Below are positions 1 through 6,851 of a stretch of DNA of 6,851 nucleotides, piece after piece. This DNA is from Candidatus Vampirococcus lugosii (GTDB lineage Bacteria > Patescibacteriota > Gracilibacteria > Absconditabacterales > Absconditicoccaceae), in NCBI RefSeq assembly GCF_018420025.1, contig NZ_JAEDAM010000049.1, positions 1 to 6,851 of the forward strand, given 5' to 3'. The notes beneath the pieces were generated by a model. The model did no database searches, was not told where the DNA came from, and saw only the letters and a list, made by a program, of their open reading frames with translations. How positions within the stretch are numbered: position 1 is the first letter of the stretch; the number at the start of each line of letters is the position of its first letter. Made by a program: the position numbers and the translations under genes.

Positions 1-8
1 TAAAAAAT

Positions 9-245
9 ATGAGTGAAGAAATTAAATTCCAAGATTTAACTATTGAAGCAAATGTTACTGAATCTACAACAAAAATATTAGAAGATGTTTATAGTATATA
101 TAAAGAAAATTATTCTGATGTTTGAGATAAAGAGCTTTGGGGATATCTTATAGAAGATATGTTGGAGGCATATTTGGAAAGTTCTGACGAATATAGTGAT
201 ATGGATGATTCTGATGATACTGATGATTTGGAAGATGATGAATAG
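9..245 (+). CDS. hypothetical small acidic protein (78 aa under table 25)
   Basis: ATG 9-11 to TAG 243-245 in one frame, with one in-frame TGA at 123-125 read as Gly. Translation is MSEEIKFQDLTIEANVTESTTKILEDVYSIYKENYSDVGDKELWGYLIEDMLEAYLESSDEYSDMDDSDDTDDLEDDE, ending in a poly-Asp/Glu/Ser tail. The stop lies 24 nt before the map start, suggesting co-transcription. No family recognised. Confidence 0.55.
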
Positions 246-269
246 ATTGTTTATATTATAATTTTTTTT

Positions 270-1043
270 ATGTGAAGAGCTATTATTAAGACTGAAAATC
301 AAATTAAGGTTATAAGAGATAGTGGTAAATATTTAAATGAACTTTTGTATTTAATATATCAAAATTGTAAACCTTGAGTTTCTCTTTTGGAACTTGAGGA
401 TTTGGCACAGTCTTTTATTGAGAAAAATAATTTAAAAGGTGCATTTAAATGATATATGTGATTTCCTGCAAATTTATGTTTGTCTGTAAATGATTGTGTT
501 GTGCATTGAATTCCAAATAATTATATCTTAAAAGATTGAGATTTATTGAAAGTAGATTCTTGAGTTATTTACAAAAAATGATTTTCTGATTCTGCTTTTT
601 CTATAATTATAGGTTGAGATGATAAAGATGTAGCATGAGCTGAATTAATTAAAATAACAAAAAAAGCATTGGATGTTTCTATAAATTTTTTGTTATCTGA
701 TTCTTATAGTTTTGATTATTCAAAATCTGTTCAAGATATAGTTGAAAATGCATGATTTTGTGTTATTAGGGATTTAACTGGTCATTGAGTTTGAACTAAA
801 GTTCATGAAGCACCTCATATTTTTAATTGGACACATCCTGATACTAAAAAAATTAAAATTAAAAAAAATATGGTTTTGGCTTTGGAACCGATAACTAGTT
901 TTAACTCCAAACATGTAATAAATAAAAAATGAAATTCTTGGAATTTGTATACAAGTAAATGAGATAAATGAGCTCAATGGGAGTATATGATATTGGTTAA
1001 AGATGATAATATTGAAGTTTTATCATGATTACAATTAGTTTAA
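270..1043 (+). CDS. map: methionine aminopeptidase, type I (257 aa under table 25)
   Basis: ATG 270-272 to TAA 1041-1043 is a single frame with 17 in-frame TGAs (hand count) and no TAA/TAG. The translation carries MetAP-I hallmarks: VDSGVIYKKGFSDSAFS (the two Asp metal ligands), DLTGHGVG (ggt cat TGA gtt TGA, 780-794), VHEAPHI, VLALEPI and AQWEYMILV. Codon 2 is itself TGA (M-G-R). Confidence 0.93.
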
Positions 1044-1088
1044 TAATTTGTTTTATTATTTGACCTTTTTTTTTTATTTATAAAAAAT

Positions 1089-1116
1089 AAATCCTTGATC
1101 TATTCAAGGATTTTTT
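1089..1116 (+). terminator. rho-independent terminator downstream of map
   Basis: Stem aaatccttga (1089-1098) pairs with tcaaggattt (1104-1113) around the loop tctat. The T-run continues to 1116. An A-tract upstream could allow function in both directions. Confidence 0.7.
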
Positions 1117-1173
1117 GAAATATATAAAAATATTTACTACAAATTTATAATCTTGTTTTCTTGATCTATTCAA
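1094..1173. repeat. two copies of a 14-bp motif cttgatctattcaa (1094-1107 and 1160-1173)
   Basis: Exact 14-nt direct repeat. The motif is an internal inverted repeat, TTGA-N5-TCAA. Copy 1 forms the core of the map terminator hairpin. Copy 2 lacks the flanking complementarity and the T-run. Confidence 0.6.
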
Positions 1174-1205
1174 AATTAAAATCACTTTTTTACAAAAAAA
1201 ATTAC

Positions 1206-1244
1206 ATTTTCTCTTGAAATTTTATTTTTTTTTTGTATTATAAT
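1206..1244 (+). promoter_or_regulatory. sigma70-like promoter of the groES operon
   Basis: -35 TTGAAA at 1214-1219, within the box attttctcttgaaa. -10 is TATAAT at 1239-1244 (19-nt spacer) or TATTAT at 1236-1241 (16-nt spacer). An 8-A tract lies upstream at 1194-1201. The CIRCE-like palindrome starts immediately downstream. Confidence 0.55.
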
Positions 1245-1267
1245 AGCACCTTCAAGATTGAGGTGCT
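1245..1267 (+). promoter_or_regulatory. CIRCE-like inverted repeat (putative HrcA operator)
   Basis: AGCACCT (1245-1251), N9 (tcaagattg), AGGTGCT (1261-1267). The CIRCE core AGCAC-N13-GTGCT is kept with the same spacing as the consensus TTAGCACTC-N9-GAGTGCTAA. It sits between the -10 box and groES, the canonical position. Confidence 0.6.
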
Positions 1268-1317
1268 TTAAATTGTTATTTAAAGTTTTAATTTTATATA
1301 TTTAATATAATAAAAAT

Positions 1318-1623
1318 ATGAGTAAATTATATCCTATAGAAGATAATGTTGTTGTAAAAGCTTGTAAGGAGGAAACTAAAACAAAATCTTGAATTGTTCT
1401 TCCAGAGTCCAATAAAGAAAAACCATGAAAGTGAGAAGTTGTTGCTGTTGGTGAAGGTAAAATATTAGATGATTGATCTAGATCAAAAATGGATGTTAAT
1501 GTTTGAGATATTGTATATTTTACTAAATATAGTCCTGATGAAATTGAAGTTGAAAGTGAATGAGAAAAAGTAAAATATTTAGTTCTAAAACATTCTAGTA
1601 TTTTGGCAAAAGATAAAAAATAA
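1318..1623 (+). CDS. groES: co-chaperonin GroES (101 aa under table 25)
   Basis: ATG 1318-1320 to TAA 1621-1623 with 6 in-frame TGAs. Translation is MSKLYPIEDNVVVKACKEETKTKSGIVLPESNKEKPGKGEVVAVGEGKILDDGSRSKMDVNVGDIVYFTKY... This matches the Cpn10 pattern (P-x-x-D-x-V-x-V, SGI-x-LP, G-x-V-x-AVG-x-G, GD-x-V-x-F). Confidence 0.93.
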
Positions 1624-1653
1624 TAATTTAAAATTTATTAAAAAAGTTATATT

Positions 1654-1818
1654 ATGGAAGGAAAAAATATGTCCGTAGAACAATTTTTGGGTTATAGTTT
1701 TGGTTATATAAAATGAATTATTAATAATGAAAAAATGTCAGATAATGAAAAATTAAATGAAATAAAAAAATACATAGATGATAATTCAAAAAAAATATTA
1801 TGAGAAAATCTAAAATAA
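1654..1818 (+). CDS. hypothetical small protein (54 aa) between groES and groEL
   Basis: ATG 1654-1656 to TAA 1816-1818 with 2 in-frame TGAs. Translation is MEGKNMSVEQFLGYSFGYIKGIINNEKMSDNEKLNEIKKYIDDNSKKILGENLK. An alternative in-frame ATG at 1669 is preceded by the purine-rich ggaagga (1656-1662). A 55-codon stretch free of TAA/TAG is unlikely by chance in sequence this AT-rich. No homology recognised. Confidence 0.45.
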
Positions 1819-1850
1819 TTTAAATATTTATATCTATAAATTAAAAAATA

Positions 1851-3515
1851 ATGTCAAAAATAATAAAATATCATGATGAATGAAGAAAACAAGTATATAA
1901 TGGTATACAAAAAGTTGCACAAGCAGTTATGGTAACAATGTGACCAAAAGGTAAAAATGTTATTTTGGAAAAATCATATTGAGCTCCAACAGTTACTAAT
2001 GATTGAGTTACTGTAGCAAAAGAAATTGAATTAGAAGATAAATTTGAAAATATTTGAGCTGAATTTGTAAAAGAAGCAGCTAATAAAACTAATGATGCAG
2101 CTGGTGATGGTACTACAAGTACTGTTGTTTTGTTGGATGGAATAGTTAAAGAATGATTGAGATATATAGATTCTTGAGTAAATCCTTTTGCACTTGGTAG
2201 AGGTTTACAAAAAGCAAGTGAAAAATCTATACAAGAATTGAAAGAACAATCCAAACCTATTGATACTAAAGAACAAATTAAACAAGTAGCAACAATATCG
2301 GCTCAAGATGAACAAGTTGGTGAATTAATAGCTGAAGTTATGGAAGAAGTTGGTAATGATTGAGTTGTTACAGTAGAAGAATGAAAATCAATCGGTCTAG
2401 AAAAGGAAGTAGTAAAAGGTATGCAATTTGATCAAGGTTATTTAAGTCCATATTTTATTACTGATTCTTCTAGGATGGAAGCTATATCTGAAAAATCATC
2501 AATTATAATTACTGATAAAAAAATATCTTCTATTAAAGAAATCTTGCCTTTGTTGGAACAAATTACTAATTCTGGTAAAAAAGATATAGTTTTGATAGCT
2601 GAAGATATAGAATGAGAAGCTTTGGCAACATTAGTATTAAATAAAATAAGATGAATTTTGAATGTATTAGCTATTAAAGCTCCATGATTTGGTGATAGAA
2701 AAAAAGAAATGCTTAAAGATATAGCAACTATTACTTGATGACAAGTAATAAGTGAAGAAATATGAATGAATATAGAAAATGTTGGTATGGAAGTAGTTGG
2801 TAGTGCTGATAAAATTGTTTCAAATAAAGATAATACTGTAATAATTGGTGGTAAATGACAAGAAGAAAATATTAATTCAAGAGTTCAAGAAATAAGAGTA
2901 CAAATAGAAAATACTAATTCTGATTATGATAAAGAAAAATTACAAGAAAGATTGGCTAGATTAGTATGATGAGTTGCAGTAATTAGAGTATGAGCAGCTA
3001 CAGAAACAGAAATGAAAAATAAGAAATTTAAAATAGAAGATGCTATGAATGCAACTAGAGCAGCAGTTCAAGAATGAATTGTGGCTGGTTGAGGTACAGC
3101 ACTTTTGAATATTTCAAAATCTTTAGAAAACTTTAATTTGGAAGATAAAGATGAACAAGTTGGTGTAGAAATTATAAAAAAAGCTATTCAATATCCAGCT
3201 ATACAAATAGTAAATAATGCATGATATAAAGCGGATTTAGTTATAGAAAAAGTTAAAGAATGAAATGATATTAATTATGGTTTCAATTCAAAAACTTGAG
3301 AATATGTTGATATGTTGGATGCATGAGTAATTGATCCAGTAAAAGTAGTAAGAGAATCTTTACAAAATGCTACTAGTGCGGCTAGTTTACTTTTGACTAC
3401 TGATGCAGTAATTGCAGACTCACCAAGTAAAGATGATAATAAATTATCTGATGATATGTGAGGAATGGGTTGAATGTGAGGAATGTGAGGAATGTGAATG
3501 CCTGGTATGATGTAA
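1851..3515 (+). CDS. groEL: chaperonin GroEL / Cpn60 (554 aa under table 25)
   Basis: ATG 1851-1853 to TAA 3513-3515 is one frame with 30 in-frame TGAs (hand count) and no TAA/TAG. Diagnostic motifs are VTMGPKGKNV (TGA 1941-1943), [52 protein letters not shown] (TGAs at 2967-2972 and 2991-2993), EGIVAGGG, DAGVIDPVKV and a C-terminal GGM-repeat tail. Confidence 0.97.
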
Positions 3516-3534
3516 ATCATATTTGTTGTTAAAT

Positions 3535-3567
3535 AAAAAATCTACATTATTTAGTGTAGATTTTTTT
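3535..3567 (+). terminator. rho-independent terminator downstream of groEL
   Basis: Stem aaaaaatctaca (3535-3546) pairs with tgtagatttttt (3555-3566) around the loop ttatttag. It is followed by a T-run. The stem is AT-rich, in keeping with the genome composition. Confidence 0.7.
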
Positions 3568-3629
3568 AAATTAATAAAAAATAGATTTTTAAGAAAAATT
3601 ATAATAATATTTTATATTATAAAAAAAAT

Positions 3630-3669
3630 ATTTTCTCTTGAAAATGAATTATATAACATTATATATAAT
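3630..3669 (+). promoter_or_regulatory. sigma70-like promoter of the 105-aa protein / tRNA-Arg unit
   Basis: It has the same 14-nt box attttctcttgaaa (3630-3643) as the groES promoter, with -35 TTGAAA at 3638-3643 and an 8-A tract at 3621-3628. Candidate -10 boxes are TATATA at 3662-3667 (18-nt spacer) or TATAAT at 3664-3669 (20-nt spacer). Confidence 0.4.
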
Positions 3670-3698
3670 ATATATTTTTATATATAAAATTTAGTGTA

Positions 3699-4016
3699 AT
3701 GGCTAGTAGAACTAATAAAATGTGAATATTGAAACAAAAAAAACAAGCTGAAAAACAAAAAAAACTTATTTGAGAAAGTTCAAAAAATAATTTGGAATGA
3801 CAAAAAAGAGAATATACAAATCCTAAAGGAAATTCTTATTTGTGGTTTTTTCGTGTATGAAAACTGATATGTGATATTACTTCTTGAAGGGAAGATCCAG
3901 ATTGATATAGAGCAGTAAGACAGCCAAATTCTTGAGAAGTTAGTTTTATTTATAAATGATTTGATTCATGGTGATATAGAAAATATGTAAAAAAAAATAG
4001 AAAAATTAATAGATAA
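3699..4016 (+). CDS. hypothetical basic protein (105 aa under table 25)
   Basis: ATG 3699-3701 to TAA 4014-4016 with 9 in-frame TGAs. Translation is MASRTNKMGILKQKKQAEKQKKLIGESSKNNLEGQKREYTNPKGNSYLWFFRVGKLICDITSGREDPDGYRAVRQPNSGEVSFIYKGFDSWGYRKYVKKNRKINR. Both termini are Lys/Arg-rich and the core is Gly/aromatic-rich. No family recognised. Confidence 0.55.
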
Positions 4017-4051
4017 ATATTTTTTTATGATATATTTTCTGTAATTTATAT

Positions 4052-4123
4052 AAGGGGATAGTGTAATTGGGAACACAGAGGTCTTCGGCACCTCAGTTGT
4101 CGGTTCAAGTCCGGCTCTCCTTG
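4052..4123 (+). tRNA. tRNA-Arg (anticodon UCG), 72 nt, CCA not encoded
   Basis: Hand-folded cloverleaf. Acceptor stem AAGGGGA/TCTCCTT (one G-U pair, A1:U72), then TA. D stem GTGT/ACAC with loop AATTGGGA. Anticodon stem GAGGT/ACCTC with loop C-T-TCG-G-C, placing the anticodon at 4085-4087. Variable loop AGTT. T stem GTCGG/CCGGC with loop TTCAAGT. Discriminator G at 4123, followed by a T-run. Confidence 0.85.
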
Positions 4124-4168
4124 TTTTTTTAAAACTTCTATTTGTAGATTAACATTTTTAATAAATTC

Positions 4169-4195
4169 TTGATTATATACAGTATTTGTTAGAAT
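4169..4195 (+). promoter_or_regulatory. candidate extended -10 promoter upstream of the 476-aa gene
   Basis: cTTGATT at 4168-4174 resembles the cTTGA -35 boxes of the other promoters. TGtTAGAAT at 4187-4195 fits an extended -10, but the spacer is only 15 nt. This is a weak call. Confidence 0.25.
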
Positions 4196-4278
4196 ATAAA
4201 AATATTTTTTGTGATACATAAATTTAATATAATTTTTTTGGATTAAAATAAATATTATATTGAAAATTATAATCTAAT

Positions 4279-5709
4279 ATGTATAAAGTATTCAATTTTT
4301 TAAAAATATATAATTTAGATTCAATGAATAGTAAAACATATGTAAAAAATAATTTAAAAAAATATTTTATTTATTTTGTATTGAGTTCCTTTTTTTTGCT
4401 AATTTGATTTTCATTGTATTTGTCGTATTCAAATAAATTATTGGAATCGTTTTTATTTGCAAAAGAATTTGATCCTTGATTTATTAGTAATACTGTATTT
4501 GATTATCCAAATAATTTGATGAGAGCTTGAAACTTATATAAAAATAGATTGGAAAGTGTATATATTACGAGTGATAAAAAATTATCTGATAAAGTTTCAA
4601 ATTATATTTGAAATATAGAAACATTACAATGAAATTTTGAAAAAGCTAGAGATTCTTTCCAAATTAAAAATTGGGAATATTATTTCAATACTGCTAATAC
4701 ATATTTATTTGAATGATATAGAACTTATTTGGACTGAGATTTATTTGAATCTTTTGAATTATTGTCAGAATCAATTAAAGCTTATAATAAATCGGCAAAA
4801 GTTCTTTGAGATCCAGAAGATGAATATGCTTGAGATATTATTAATAATAGGGTAATTGCTTACAGTATTAGACTTTTGATATCTGCTCAAATATGTGCTG
4901 ATATATTTTCTGATATTATTGATAATTTTGAGAAATTAATAGATAATATAGTGGATTTAATAGATAAAATCTATAATCAAATGGTTCAAATGCAATCTTG
5001 GCAAAAAGAACTTGAGGATGAATTTTTGGTTGATTGTTTGGATTCGTTGATTGAGTCAAATAAAGAATCTTATTTAAATCTTGTAAAAATAAATGAATCT
5101 GTTATTGAATATAAATATTCAGCTCTTGATATGCTTGAAGATTATATTCAACAAGATCCTTATAGTTGTGCTATTGAATCTGATAATATAAAAAATAAAT
5201 TTTTGTCAGCTTACAATTCTATGAATACTGCCTTGCAAGGATTTTATATGTCCTATAATGTATTGGATATGATAATAAAAGAAAAGGATGAAAAAACACT
5301 TAGATATTTGTGTGAAAATGCTGATAAATTTTCTGAAAATATTGATGATGCAAATGAAGAAATGAAAGATTGAATGCAATGATTGGATGAATTATTTAAT
5401 CCTGATAAATGATATAGACAAGATCCAAATAGACAACATCAAGATCCAAATTTTGATGAAGATTGAGAAGATTTATTCAATGAACAAGATGAAGAAAGGC
5501 CTAGAGCAACTGATAAAGATCCAAACTATGATATTCTTGAAGATTGAATGCAAGAAAAAATGAAAAAAGAAATGAGAGAACAATCTTGAGATCGGATACA
5601 AGAAATGTATGAAAAAAGATCTAGACCTAAATATACACCCAAAGATTATATACATGAATTATTTAATGATTTTTATGGTAAACCAGAGGATTTTGGGGAT
5701 AATTGGTAA
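4279..5709 (+). CDS. hypothetical N-terminally membrane-anchored protein with acidic repeat-bearing C-terminus (476 aa under table 25)
   Basis: One continuous frame from ATG 4279-4281, the first ATG after TAA 4270-4272, to TAA 5707-5709. It has 15 in-frame TGAs. An alternative start at ATG 4324 gives 461 aa beginning MNSKTYVKNNLKKYFIYFVLSSFFLLIGFSLYLSYS, i.e. a basic N-terminus plus one hydrophobic helix. The standard-code ORF 4876-5373 is an internal fragment of this frame. A predicted helical, Gly-poor middle region is followed by a Asp/Glu-rich tail. No family recognised. Confidence 0.7.
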
Positions 5710-5734
5710 AATTTATTAATAAATTAATTTATAA

Positions 5735-6583
5735 ATGGTAGCTTTAGAAATTTTTGGAATATCTATTTATTGGTATTGAATTTTTTATCTTTTATCTTTT
5801 GTTTTATCTTATTTATTCCTTTATTCTTTAGCAAGGTCAAACTTGCTTGATAATTATTGAAAAGTAAAAAATCTTTTAAAAAATAATTTGGATGATATTG
5901 CTTTTTACATTATTTTATGAGTTTTGCTTGGATGAAGATTAGGTTATGTAATATTTTATAATCAGAGTATTATTTTCAATAATATATGGGAAATATTTTT
6001 TATATGGCAAGGTTGAATGGCTTTTGTAGGTGGAGTAATATGAGTTTTTTTATCTATGTTATATATTAAATCAAAATATAAATTATCATATAAAGATTTT
6101 TATTTTCTTATAGATTTGATAGTTATTGTGGTGCCATTGTGAATATTTTTTGGAAGAATTGGAAATTTTTTAAATCAAGAATTATTTGGGAAAACTATAG
6201 ATGAGATTTGAAGTTCTATTTTGTATCAAAATCAAGAATTATTGGAAGCAATAAACTTAATTTATATATATGAAACAGTAGATCAAGAAAAAAGACTTAA
6301 TACTAATTTTTTGGAAAGTTTTTGAGAATGATTATTATTATTTTTGATATTCATAGTTATATTTTGGAAAAAACTAATATCTTGAAAATATAAAGTATGA
6401 TTAATATCATGATTATTTTTGTTATTATATTGAATAATTAGATTTATTATAGAATTTGGTAGAGATACTACACAGGTAAATTATATTTTGTGATTTACAA
6501 GTAGTCAATATTTTATGATAATCTTTATTATTTTATGATTTATGATATTATTTGGATTTGATAAAATGGAGAAAAAATTTTAA
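5735..6583 (+). CDS. lgt: prolipoprotein (phosphatidylglycerol) diacylglyceryl transferase (282 aa under table 25)
   Basis: ATG 5735-5737 to TAA 6581-6583 with 16 in-frame TGAs. The protein is polytopic and hydrophobic with Lgt signature blocks: IYWYGIFY (tat TGG tat TGA, 5768-5779), LGGRLGYV, WQGGMAFVGG, GRIGNFLNQELFG, FLESFGEGLLLF and LYGIIRFIIEFGRD. It starts 25 nt after the upstream gene, so the two are probably co-transcribed. Confidence 0.9.
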
Positions 6584-6610
6584 TTTATTTTAATTTATGA
6601 GATTATGACG

Positions 6611-6640
6611 AGGGAATGTAGAATTATACATTCTTTTTTT
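6611..6640 (+). terminator. rho-independent terminator downstream of lgt
   Basis: Stem gaatgta (6614-6620) pairs with tacattc (6627-6633) around the loop gaatta. G-U and A-U pairs can extend the stem. A 7-T run follows at 6634-6640. Confidence 0.7.
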
Positions 6641-6679
6641 GTTTAACAGTTTTTTAGTACAAAAAATAGATAAAAAAAC

Positions 6680-6708
6680 TTGACTTTTTGGATTAAATTG
6701 TTTACAAT
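6680..6708 (+). promoter_or_regulatory. near-consensus sigma70 promoter
   Basis: -35 TTGACT at 6680-6685, a 17-nt spacer, and -10 TACAAT at 6703-6708. A 7-A tract lies upstream at 6672-6678. This is the best -35/-10 match in the window. Confidence 0.6.
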
Positions 6709-6716
6709 TATATTAG

Positions 6717-6736
6717 ACTGTATTATTGAATACAGT
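6717..6736. promoter_or_regulatory. perfect 20-bp palindrome at the predicted transcript start (operator or 5' stem-loop)
   Basis: ACTGTATT (6717-6724), ATTG, AATACAGT (6729-6736): 8-bp arms with no mismatches. It begins about 9 nt after the -10 box and lies 37 nt upstream of the ATG at 6773. Confidence 0.4.
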
Positions 6737-6772
6737 AAATTACTTTTATTTATATACTAATACAAAAATAAA

Positions 6773-6851
6773 ATGAAAAACATTAAGTCAAATAGATTGA
6801 AACTAACTGTTCGTCATCAACCCCCTCTGTTGCCAAAGATGGTGATTGAGT
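6773..6851 (+). CDS. 5' end of an unidentified ORF, truncated by the window edge
   Basis: ATG 6773-6775 opens the only open frame here: MKNIKSNRLKLTVRHQPPLLPKMVIE... The last ~45 nt are noticeably more GC-rich and use codons (ccc, ctg, gtg, cgt) that are rare in the other genes. A structured RNA cannot be excluded. Confidence 0.3.
   Translation, partial: MKNIKSNRLKLTVRHQPPLLPKMVIE

Follow-up and report, generated by a model that had tools for sequence, protein, structure and literature searches.

Organization of the locus

The analyzed window, a stretch of 6,851 nt with 24% GC, is a contig from the chromosome of a predatory bacterium, Candidatus Vampirococcus lugosii (Absconditabacteria/SR1). 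It carries, in this order, orf1, map, groES, a small ORF (orf4), groEL, orf6, a tRNA gene, orf7, and lgt (Table 1). When stops were limited to TAA and TAG, eight coding sequences were obtained, all on the forward strand, and seven of the eight table-25 products matched GenBank proteins of V. lugosii exactly. Searches of Pfam and NCBIfam returned no match for orf1 and no family for orf6, and orf7 was confined to Absconditabacteria, where L084 and L089 (Absconditicoccus praedator) each carry a homologue. The initial annotation had likened the locus to the recoding of the SR1/Absconditabacteria lineage and had called this known biology. Both statements were correct, as the contig is published and annotated with table 25. 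The 2021 genome paper on Ca. Vampirococcus lugosii, whose assembly was built from whole-genome-amplified DNA, states that UGA encodes glycine, and its genes were called by Prodigal with table 25; the UGA recoding is therefore known biology for the very same genome, already published and not new.

Table 1. Features identified in the window (positions in nt; TGA, number of in-frame TGA codons)
Feature	Position	Strand	TGA	Description	Basis
orf1	9..245	+	1 (123)	78-aa acidic hypothetical protein	Exact match to MBS8122170.1
map	270..1043	+	17	Type I methionine aminopeptidase (MetAP), 257 aa	Pfam Peptidase_M24, E = 8e-28; PDB MetAP alignments; exact match to MBS8122171.1
Hairpin	1089..1113	.		3' of map; AAATCCTTGA-loop-TCAAGGATTT, then T run	Hairpin scan, assigned to - strand
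Control region	1214..1267	+		Putative groESL control region	TTGAAA 1214-1219; TATTATAAT 1236-1244; AGCACCT-N9-AGGTGCT inverted repeat 1245-1267
groES	1318..1623	+	6	101 aa	Pfam Cpn10; PDB alignments
orf4	1654..1818	+	2	54 aa, between groES and groEL	GenBank MBS8122173.1
groEL	1851..3515	+	30	554 aa	Pfam Cpn60; PDB alignments
orf6	3699..4016	+	9	105-aa basic hypothetical protein	GenBank MBS8122175.1
tRNA	4052..4123	+		Anticodon UCG	ARAGORN and Rfam; software label tRNA-Arg
orf7	4279..5709	+	15	476-aa hypothetical protein with sole CGG	GenBank MBS8122176.1, Arg at residue 439
CGG codon	5593..5595	+		orf7 residue 439	TGG-aligned in both distant homologues
lgt	5735..6583	+	16	Prolipoprotein diacylglyceryl transferase, 282 aa	Pfam LGT; alignment with E. 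coli Lgt 5azb; 100% identical to MBS8122168.1
Ninth ORF (start)	6773..6851	+			Comparison with contig L081

The ninth ORF begins close to the window's end. From position 6802 on, the match to L081, which is 99.3-99.5% identical elsewhere, was lost and the GC content was 47%; the final 50 nt look chimeric.

In-frame TGA codons correspond to glycine

With TGA as a stop, as in the standard code, no start-to-stop ORF was longer than 165 aa (4876-5373), the maximum named in the initial annotation, and the longest stop-to-stop run was 179 codons. The eight coding sequences comprised 1907 sense codons with no internal TAA or TAG and no frameshift, and all terminated with TAA or TAG, as previously described; TAA was used in seven cases and TAG in one (orf1). 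Since TAA and TAG together occurred at a rate of 7.7% per codon in the other two sense frames, the probability of 1907 codons without one is approximately 1e-66, and the open frames are far beyond chance. A recount of in-frame TGA codons gave numbers identical to those reported earlier for each gene, with a sum of 96. The window contained 52 GGN codons; TGA is thus the majority glycine codon and accounts for 5% of codons.

The residues at the TGA columns were tabulated in the four recognizable families. In GroEL, for which 79 genes from named bacteria with the standard code, translated from their DNA, served as the reference, the 30 TGA columns were 87.5% Gly, as compared with 79% for the GGN columns and 1.9% for the remaining columns of the same genes. 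The Gly share was 76% at the six TGA columns of 60 standard-code GroES (GGN columns, 82.5%), 61% in 141 MetAP homologues (GGN columns, 66%; others, 5%), and 65.5% in 44 distant Lgt homologues (GGN columns, 66%). The TGA columns therefore matched the window's own GGN columns in Gly share, with 2-5% Gly at other columns, and PDB pairwise alignments of GroEL, MetAP, GroES, and Lgt agreed with glycine at TGA. The codon log-odds for TGA in GroEL were +81.6 bits for Gly and -96.7 for Ala, the next best residue. The canonical GGM repeat of the GroEL C-terminal tail appeared only when TGA was read as Gly, and is written in alternating TGA, GGA, and GGT codons.

It had been claimed that the TGAs fall on invariant glycines. 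The codons cited for this are present in groEL at 1941 (xGPKG) and 2967, 2970, and 2991 (LVxxVAVIRVxAATE), in map at 786 and 792 (GHxVx), and in lgt at 5777, where TGG-TAT-TGA gives W-Y-x. Across the four families, 47 of 69 TGA columns were majority-Gly, for which the claim holds; it does not extend to the others, about one third of the alignable TGA columns, which were variable, gapped, or occupied by Ala or Ser in the homologues.

In relatives, TGA was exchanged for glycine codons. L081, an independent assembly from another sample, has the same eight genes at 99.3-99.5% identity and keeps 93 of the 96 TGAs, the changes being to GGA or GGT; four TGA/GGN changes and none to TGG were counted between it and the window. 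Against L082, TGA lay opposite GGT or GGA 24 times and never opposite TGG. Judged from this conservation, the locus is intact, as the initial annotation held, and under purifying selection.

In V. lugosii, UGA is thus a sense codon for glycine and termination is by UAA and UAG only, as in code 25, which Absconditabacteria/SR1 and Gracilibacteria use (Campbell et al. 2013 and Rinke et al. 2013, as cited in PMC8629427 and PMC8080830). The window shares with code 25 the in-frame TGA at Gly columns, TAA and TAG as the only stops, and low GC; V. lugosii is a named member, and no difference was found for UGA, although TGA outnumbers all GGN codons together in the window. Published work on the clade suggests that UGA would be decoded by tRNA-Gly(UCA), with release factor 2 absent; neither a tRNA-Gly(UCA) gene nor an RF2 gene lies within the 6.8-kb window. 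In the preferred reading, AT pressure has turned TGA into the majority glycine codon.

Probable reading of CGA and CGG as tryptophan

The only tRNA gene of the window has A1:U72, G20 rather than A20, G37, and the discriminator G73. In ten metagenomic homologues (81-96% identical), all on TGA-sense contigs, G20, G73, and A1:U72 were present without exception. A tRNA-Arg(GCG) adjoins the homologue in nine of the ten contigs and has A20 and A73, as read by eye from the sequences. Outside its own family, the nearest tRNAs were tRNA-Trp(CCA). According to the tRNA identity rules in PMC8629427, A20 is the main arginine element, and 'A/G73' is allowed in tRNA-Arg. The gene is probably a tRNA-Trp(UCG), in which a UCG anticodon is combined with identity elements of the Trp type instead of the Arg type, so that CGA and CGG would be read as Trp; we infer the synthetase that would charge it.

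The CGG codon at 5593 was the window's sole CGG and the only CGA/CGG among 1915 codons, AGA being the main arginine codon (39). It lies opposite TGG in both distant orf7 homologues (L084 and L089), and a reciprocal orf7 column has TGG in the window and L084 and CGG in L089. In Lgt of relatives, 44 and 33 of 118 database proteins have 'R' at the two conserved Trp columns, and the codons at these columns were CGA or CGG in the three relatives read as DNA (L086-L088).

These features are shared with the reassignment of CGA/CGG to Trp that Codetta predicted for Absconditabacteria on computational grounds only (Shulgina and Eddy 2021, PMC8629427), namely a tRNA(UCG) without A20 and with G73 and A1:U72, very rare CGA/CGG, AGA as the main arginine codon, and CGG at a Trp column. 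PMC13092985 takes the reassignment as accepted; PMC8629427 makes no mention of V. lugosii, the GenBank annotation of which still gives Arg, and the basis within the window is one codon and a tRNA gene. Given the fit of the tRNA and CGG 5593 to the prediction, the Arg439 of GenBank is probably Trp, and a second code change, by which the rare CGA/CGG are read as Trp, is quite likely in V. lugosii.

It is rather unlikely that table 25 is complete, with an ordinary tRNA-Arg and an Arg at residue 439. The ARAGORN label, the G73 found in some tRNA-Arg, and an anticodon other than CCA, normally a major TrpRS determinant, would agree with such a reading, and some Gracilibacteria are predicted to retain CGG as Arg; moreover, a single CGG is at issue, and CGG and TGG differ by one substitution. 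Against it, G20 replaces A20 in the window and all ten homologues, whereas the adjoining tRNA-Arg(GCG) keeps the arginine elements; the tRNA body is closest to tRNA-Trp(CCA); CGG and TGG interchange in orf7 in both directions; CGA/CGG occupy conserved Trp columns of Lgt; and V. lugosii belongs to a phylum for which the change was predicted. Table 25, as proposed at first, was thus borne out for TGA but is probably incomplete, and both it and the public annotation would miss CGA/CGG as Trp. The orf7 peptide at residue 439 would be EQSGDWIQEMYEK if CGG is Trp and EQSGDRIQEMYEK if it is Arg.

Other readings of UGA

An ambiguous or context-dependent UGA, mostly Gly but still terminating some genes, or subject to occasional readthrough or selenocysteine insertion, is very improbable. 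TGA 1026 of map does lie four codons 5' of TAA, near the usual end of many MetAPs; however, each of the eight genes has TAA or TAG as its terminal codon, post-TGA tails are included in GenBank products and conserved in L081, and 96 sites with TGA as the majority Gly codon are incompatible with inefficient readthrough or a SECIS-dependent mechanism.

Translation table 4, in which UGA is Trp, is used by Mycoplasmatales, Entomoplasmatales, and several insect endosymbionts. These lineages resemble the window in having UGA as a sense codon in an AT-rich reduced genome (24% GC is typical of them too), and table-11 gene callers fail in both alike; the difference is the amino acid. Public Logan-derived protein predictions for the locus (P0122) were made with TGA as W, the TGA at MetAP residue 104 falls in an aromatic Y/F/W/L column with W in 16 of 141 homologues, and the lgt TGA at 6491 lies opposite TGG or CGG in some near relatives. 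Nevertheless, Trp made up 0% at the GroEL and GroES TGA columns and 1.3-2.6% in Lgt and MetAP, none of the 69 columns was majority-Trp, the GroEL log-odds for Trp were -117.5 bits, and the interchanges in relatives were with GGN instead of TGG. TGG, moreover, serves conserved Trp columns (Lgt aa 13 and 91, MetAP aa 224) and remains a Trp codon. Table 4 was rejected on the column statistics as extremely improbable, and TGA is a glycine codon, neither stop nor Trp.

That the TGAs are true stops in pseudogenes or a faulty assembly is next to inconceivable and was rejected on the frame statistics and the conservation in L081 and L082, since, despite the amplified DNA, the chimeric-looking end, and the short table-11 ORFs, the frames are broken by one of three stops only and the table-25 products match Peptidase_M24, Cpn10, Cpn60, and LGT along their full length, as the retranslation proposed initially confirmed.

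The preferred reading, to which we assign a probability of about 0.9, is an intact V. lugosii contig in which UGA encodes Gly and UAA and UAG are the sole terminators, with CGA/CGG probably read as Trp in addition.

Putative control elements around groES

The hairpin 3' of map is likely to be an intrinsic terminator, and TTTTTT comes next on the forward strand too. The inverted repeat upstream of groES is CIRCE-like. The CIRCE consensus is TTAGCACTC-N9-GAGTGCTAA. Like the HrcA/CIRCE groESL operons of Gram-positive bacteria, the putative control region has a sigma-70-like promoter directly 5' of a 7-bp inverted repeat whose arms lie 9 nt apart and contain the GCAC...GTGC core. In contrast to those operons, the arm is AGCACCT instead of AGCACTC, the window has no hrcA, and orf4 is an extra ORF between groES and groEL. 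This ORF is not present in L120, and L121 has an unrelated ORF at that place; L082 has an orf4 of equal length with 45% identity. A like architecture was found 5' of groES in L120 and in L082, where the repeat is GGCACCT-N9-AGGTGCC, with a compensatory change of the outer pair.

Reading frames and gene content

The window has a GC content of 23.7%, and its longest ORF under the bacterial code is 165 aa, which reproduces the limit that the initial annotation had given for the standard code. When only TAA and TAG were taken as stops, eight CDSs covering 84% of the window were found on the + strand. The recount of in-frame TGA codons gave a total of 96, identical to the initial annotation for the eight CDSs, as was every coordinate quoted there. 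The 1907 sense codons are free of internal TAA and TAG as well as of frameshifts, and the genes end in TAA (seven) or TAG (one), so the earlier description of frames broken by TGA alone was confirmed in all eight CDSs. Since the frequency of TAA and TAG in the two other sense frames is 7.7% per codon, the probability of 1907 stop-free sense codons is about 1e-66. Full-length Pfam matches were obtained for Peptidase_M24, Cpn10, Cpn60, and LGT, while orf1, orf4, orf6, orf7, and the 3' ORF matched no Pfam or NCBIfam family. The tRNA was the sole Rfam match in the window, two snoRNA scores below threshold being due to chance. The reading of UGA as glycine decides whether this locus holds eight intact genes or debris.

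Features of the window with their coordinates
Feature	Position (nt)	Strand	In-frame TGA	Description
orf1	9-245	+	1
map	270-1043	+	17
Hairpin, then T run	1089-1113			3' of map
groES upstream elements	1214-1267			TTGAAA, TATTATAAT, then directly the inverted repeat
Inverted repeat	1245-1267			AGCACCT-N9-AGGTGCT
groES	1318-1623	+	6
orf4	1654-1818	+	2	54 aa, between groES and groEL
groEL	1851-3515	+	30
GGM repeat codons	3456-3515			groEL
orf6	3699-4016	+	9
tRNA, anticodon UCG	4052-4123	+		ARAGORN "tRNA-Arg(UCG)", Rfam; only RNA gene in the window
orf7	4279-5709	+	15
Sole CGG codon	5593-5595			orf7 residue 439
lgt	5735-6583	+	16
TGA with Trp-like neighbourhood	6491-6493			Lgt residue 253
Divergent contig end	6802-6851			last 50 nt

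Amino acid meaning of TGA

To assign the TGA codons, 79 groEL genes translated from DNA with table 11 were aligned to the window product. This panel, which includes Bacillus, Paenibacillus, Helicobacter, and proteobacteria, came from a GroEL scan of species-representative genomes that returned standard-code bacteria and one mislabelled relative, and no close relatives. Tabulated over the four recognisable families as the initial annotation had suggested, the residues at TGA columns are dominantly Gly (61-87.5%), close to the values at GGN columns.

Gly and Trp in homologues at alignment columns of the window products
Family	Reference set	Gly at TGA	Gly at GGN	Gly at other columns	Trp at TGA
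GroEL	79 standard-code genes	87.5%	79%	1.9%	0%
GroES	60 from the same loci as the GroEL set	76%	82.5%	5.5%	0%
MetAP	141 cluster representatives	61%	66%	5.3%	2.6%
Lgt	44 distant homologues	65.5%	66%	2.7%	1.3%

The summed column log-odds of TGA, calculated in the manner of Codetta, were +81.6 bits for Gly and -96.7 bits for Ala, the second amino acid; the same procedure recovered the standard meanings of GGT, GCT, GAA, AAA, ATT, TTA, and AGT. Pairwise alignments with the solved structures of E. coli GroEL, T. thermophilus GroES, T. maritima MetAP, and E. coli Lgt showed residue-by-residue agreement between TGA and Gly. In addition, the GroEL C-terminus, M-x-G-M-G-x-M-x-G-M-x-G-M, becomes the canonical GGM repeat only when x (TGA) is Gly. 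The majority residue is Gly at 47 of the 69 TGA columns of the four families and Trp at none, and the other 22 columns are variable, gapped, or Ala/Ser. The earlier claim that the TGAs fall on invariant glycines thus stood for about two thirds of the alignable columns and not for the rest. True tryptophans are written TGG, as in Lgt W13 and W91 and the W of the MetAP D-G-W-T motif.

Comparison with related genomes showed that TGA and GGN behave as synonymous codons. In L081, a near-identical independent assembly (Logan, SRR13241708) in which all eight genes and the tRNA recur with a nucleotide identity of 99.3-99.5%, 93 of the 96 window TGAs are kept, and all changes involving TGA are to or from GGA or GGT (four TGA<->GGN). 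In L082, the groES/groEL locus of a more distant relative (GCA_964483725.1; GroEL 87% identical), 24 interchanges of TGA with GGT or GGA were counted across groES, groEL, and the small ORF between them, and no interchange of TGA with TGG was found in these genes.

These results support the interpretation of the initial annotation that UGA encodes Gly in the window genes. Table 4, in which UGA is Trp, was rejected by a Trp log-odds of -117.5 bits and by the scarcity of Trp at TGA columns (none in GroEL and GroES, 1.3-2.6% in Lgt and MetAP). Decay into pseudogenes is contradicted by the frame integrity, the TGA<->GGN swaps in relatives, and the Gly column statistics; the synonymous signature is incompatible with pseudogenes, with sequencing error, and with table 4. 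Selenocysteine or readthrough at TGA was ruled out by the column statistics together with the frame integrity, and a phage origin by the housekeeping genes and the identified organism.

TGA is the majority Gly codon, with 96 of 148 in the window and 302 of 385 in L082, and GGC never appears among the window Gly codons. In groEL, TGA makes up 48-62% of the Gly codons in four relatives whose groEL has a GC content of 29-33%, against 25% in L121, the one GC-richer relative examined (groEL GC 36%).

Two local features were also observed. At Lgt residue 253, the only window TGA with a Trp-like neighbourhood, the codon lies opposite TGG or CGG in two near relatives (L086 and L087), and the column is aromatic or hydrophobic in distant homologues; the codon probably arose from TGG by one base change at a site tolerant of substitution. 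The GGM repeat is written ATG TGA GGA ATG GGT TGA ATG TGA GGA ATG TGA GGA ATG TGA ATG, and because the GroEL product of L081 is shorter by 3 residues, the length of the repeat may differ between strains.

Published code and public annotation of UGA

The window Lgt matches, at 100% identity, the prolipoprotein diacylglyceryl transferase of V. lugosii, which NCBI taxonomy places in Candidatus Absconditibacteriota, a member of the recoded clade. The recoding described for SR1/Absconditabacteria and Gracilibacteria, to which the initial annotation had appealed, therefore applies to the organism, and UGA = Gly has been published for this genome (PMC8080830). In their genome paper, Moreira et al. 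2021 reported the reassignment of UGA to glycine and called genes by Prodigal with table 25; in the text searched, the only recoding mentioned is that of UGA (PMC8080830). Hence UGA = Gly is already known here, being covered by the phylum-level code and by the organism's own publication. Seven of the eight table-25 translations are exact GenBank proteins (MBS8122168, 70, 71, 72, 73, 75, and 76), and an exact match for the GroEL translation was absent from the protein collection searched.

Public pipelines still misread UGA = Gly at this locus. In Logan-derived and other public proteins for the locus and its relatives, including the database proteins P0122 and P0123 and many Lgt matches, TGA was translated as Trp (table 4), which places W at every Gly-TGA, so that the nearest matches appear 94-96% identical rather than about 99%. 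A further case is the GroEL locus L001 (3379-4929 of CAYIZS010000013.1, GC 36%), labelled uncultured Candidatus Peribacteria bacterium, which contains three in-frame TGAs at invariant GroEL Gly columns. Its genome probably uses a recoded table and may be misclassified as Peribacteria.

A tryptophan-like tRNA(UCG)

Besides UGA = Gly, Shulgina and Eddy 2021 predicted a Trp reading of CGA and CGG in Absconditabacteria, by a tRNA(UCG) in which the arginine element A20 is missing and G73 is present, with A/G1:U72 as support (PMC8629427). The window tRNA(UCG) has every feature of this prediction. Its acceptor stem consists of 7 bp, from A1:U72 to A7:U66, the D-loop AAUUGGGA places G at position 20, and G37 and the discriminator G73 are present. 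ARAGORN draws an eighth, T:G acceptor pair; homologues encoding ...CCTG-CCA confirmed that this G is the discriminator. No tRNA(UCA), for which the Gly identity elements would be G1:C72, C2:G71, G3:C70, and U73, was detected by ARAGORN in the window or in the related loci fetched, and blastn of the window tRNA against E. coli genomes gave no match.

Metagenome contigs were then scanned with a pattern fixed at three loops only (D-loop, CUUCGG anticodon loop, and T-loop), and two classes were returned. The ten window-like loci encode tRNAs 81-96% identical to that of the window, all with G20, G73, and A1:U72 and with compensatory substitutions in both the T stem and the acceptor stem, and all ten contigs are open only with TGA as sense. 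Nine of them adjoin a tRNA-Arg(GCG), whose A20 and A73 are canonical as read from the printed sequence. The other class comprises twenty ordinary loci, mostly organelle-like tRNA arrays, with an unrelated tRNA(UCG) that has A73 nearly always and A20 mostly. Among 269 tRNAs collected from every locus fetched, the best match of the window tRNA outside its own family was a tRNA-Trp(CCA). By mean similarity, too, Trp ranked highest of the isotypes (17.8), and canonical tRNA-Arg(UCG) scored 9.5 despite sharing the searched motifs. Judged from these identity elements and similarities, the gene is probably a tRNA-Trp(UCG), the putative decoder of CGA and CGG.

CGG codon and probable second reassignment

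The codon usage of the window fits the predicted reassignment, CGA and CGG being rare and AGA the dominant Arg codon; in the 1915 codons of the eight CDSs, CGA occurs 0 times, CGG once, CGT once, CGC 0 times, AGA 39 times, and AGG 6 times. The sole CGG was examined by aligning orf7 with two distant homologues whose DNA was read, L084 (GCA_964394325.1, 48% identical) and an Absconditicoccus praedator gene located upstream of lgt (L089). The window CGG corresponds to TGG in both (...D(CGG)IQEMYE, ...EWIEEMYE, and ...RWIEEML, respectively), and in a reciprocal column TGG of the window and L084 corresponds to CGG in A. praedator. Similarly, of 118 Lgt homologues from databases, 44 have 'R' at one conserved Trp column and 33 at the other, and all that do are Absconditabacteria/Gracilibacteria-like. 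The DNA of three such homologues has CGA or CGG at the Trp columns, interchanging with TGG, and CGT at true Arg columns. At a V/I/L column of GroEL, CGA was seen in two relatives, and L001 has a CGA at a V/I/L column.

From these correspondences, the CGG at orf7 residue 439 is likely to be read as Trp, and the Arg at this position in the GenBank protein (MBS8122176.1) would then be wrong. Confidence is limited because the case is a single one in the genome, CGG and TGG are one base apart, and the reassignment is a prediction. Taken together, the code of V. lugosii appears to have two departures, UGA = Gly and CGA/CGG = Trp by the tryptophan-like tRNA(UCG), a reading to which we assign a probability of about 0.8.

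What is new here is the probable second reassignment with its tRNA gene, an added member of the published computational prediction; the Codetta paper (PMC8629427) makes no mention of Vampirococcus. The tRNA places the probable decoder in a named, morphologically characterised organism. Since table 25 was used to translate the GenBank record, errors of Arg for Trp, of which orf7 R439 would be one, would be spread across the public V. lugosii proteome. The orf7 peptide, EQSGDWIQEMYEK versus EQSGDRIQEMYEK, and the tRNA gene offer concrete handles on the predicted CGG = Trp.

To the frames, the Gly correspondence, the TGA<->GGN and CGR<->TGG interchanges, the tRNA features, and the organism, all observed directly, a mechanism may be added from the cited clade literature. 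AT pressure would first have depleted UGA and CGA/CGG, which were later captured; a tRNA-Gly(UCA) would decode UGA, RF2 would have been lost, and TrpRS would charge tRNA(UCG) despite its non-CCA anticodon.

Putative control region of groESL and the small ORF

Judging from its signals, the locus resembles expressed bacterial operons of the ordinary kind, with AT-rich hairpins after groEL and lgt similar to that 3' of map. The arrangement upstream of groES is kept in two relatives' loci, L082 (about 9400-9460, with a compensatory outer pair) and L120 (about 2470-2525). The promoter-like pair rests on this conservation and not on the promoter scan of the window, which gave fewer matches than shuffles and is uninformative at 24% GC. 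The CIRCE operator of HrcA has the consensus TTAGCACTC-N9-GAGTGCTAA; the repeat upstream of groES is similar, but its arms are off consensus. Its conservation with a compensatory change in relatives suggests that a putative HrcA-type heat-shock control of groESL has been retained.

The 54-aa ORF is lacking in L120, and in L121, another relative's groES/groEL locus, an unrelated ORF of 58 aa takes its place. The counterpart of the 54-aa ORF in L082 (9805-9969) is of equal length and 45% identical, the common motif being FLGY.FGYI.GII.NE.

The orf7 family and the contig end

The orf7 family was seen in three Absconditabacteria-type genomes only (the window, L084 227-1621, and L089 8564-9985), and the gene adjoins lgt in V. 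lugosii and A. praedator. The products have an N-terminal hydrophobic segment and the conserved blocks NWEYYFN, DPYSCA, and RQHQDP, and two members have a C-terminal PEDFGDNW.

The last 50 nt of the window have a GC content of 47% versus 24% overall and are dissimilar to the otherwise 99.3-99.5% identical L081. Whole-genome amplification probably produced a chimeric contig end here; a real strain difference is less probable. The ninth ORF is altered after residue 10 by the divergent end.
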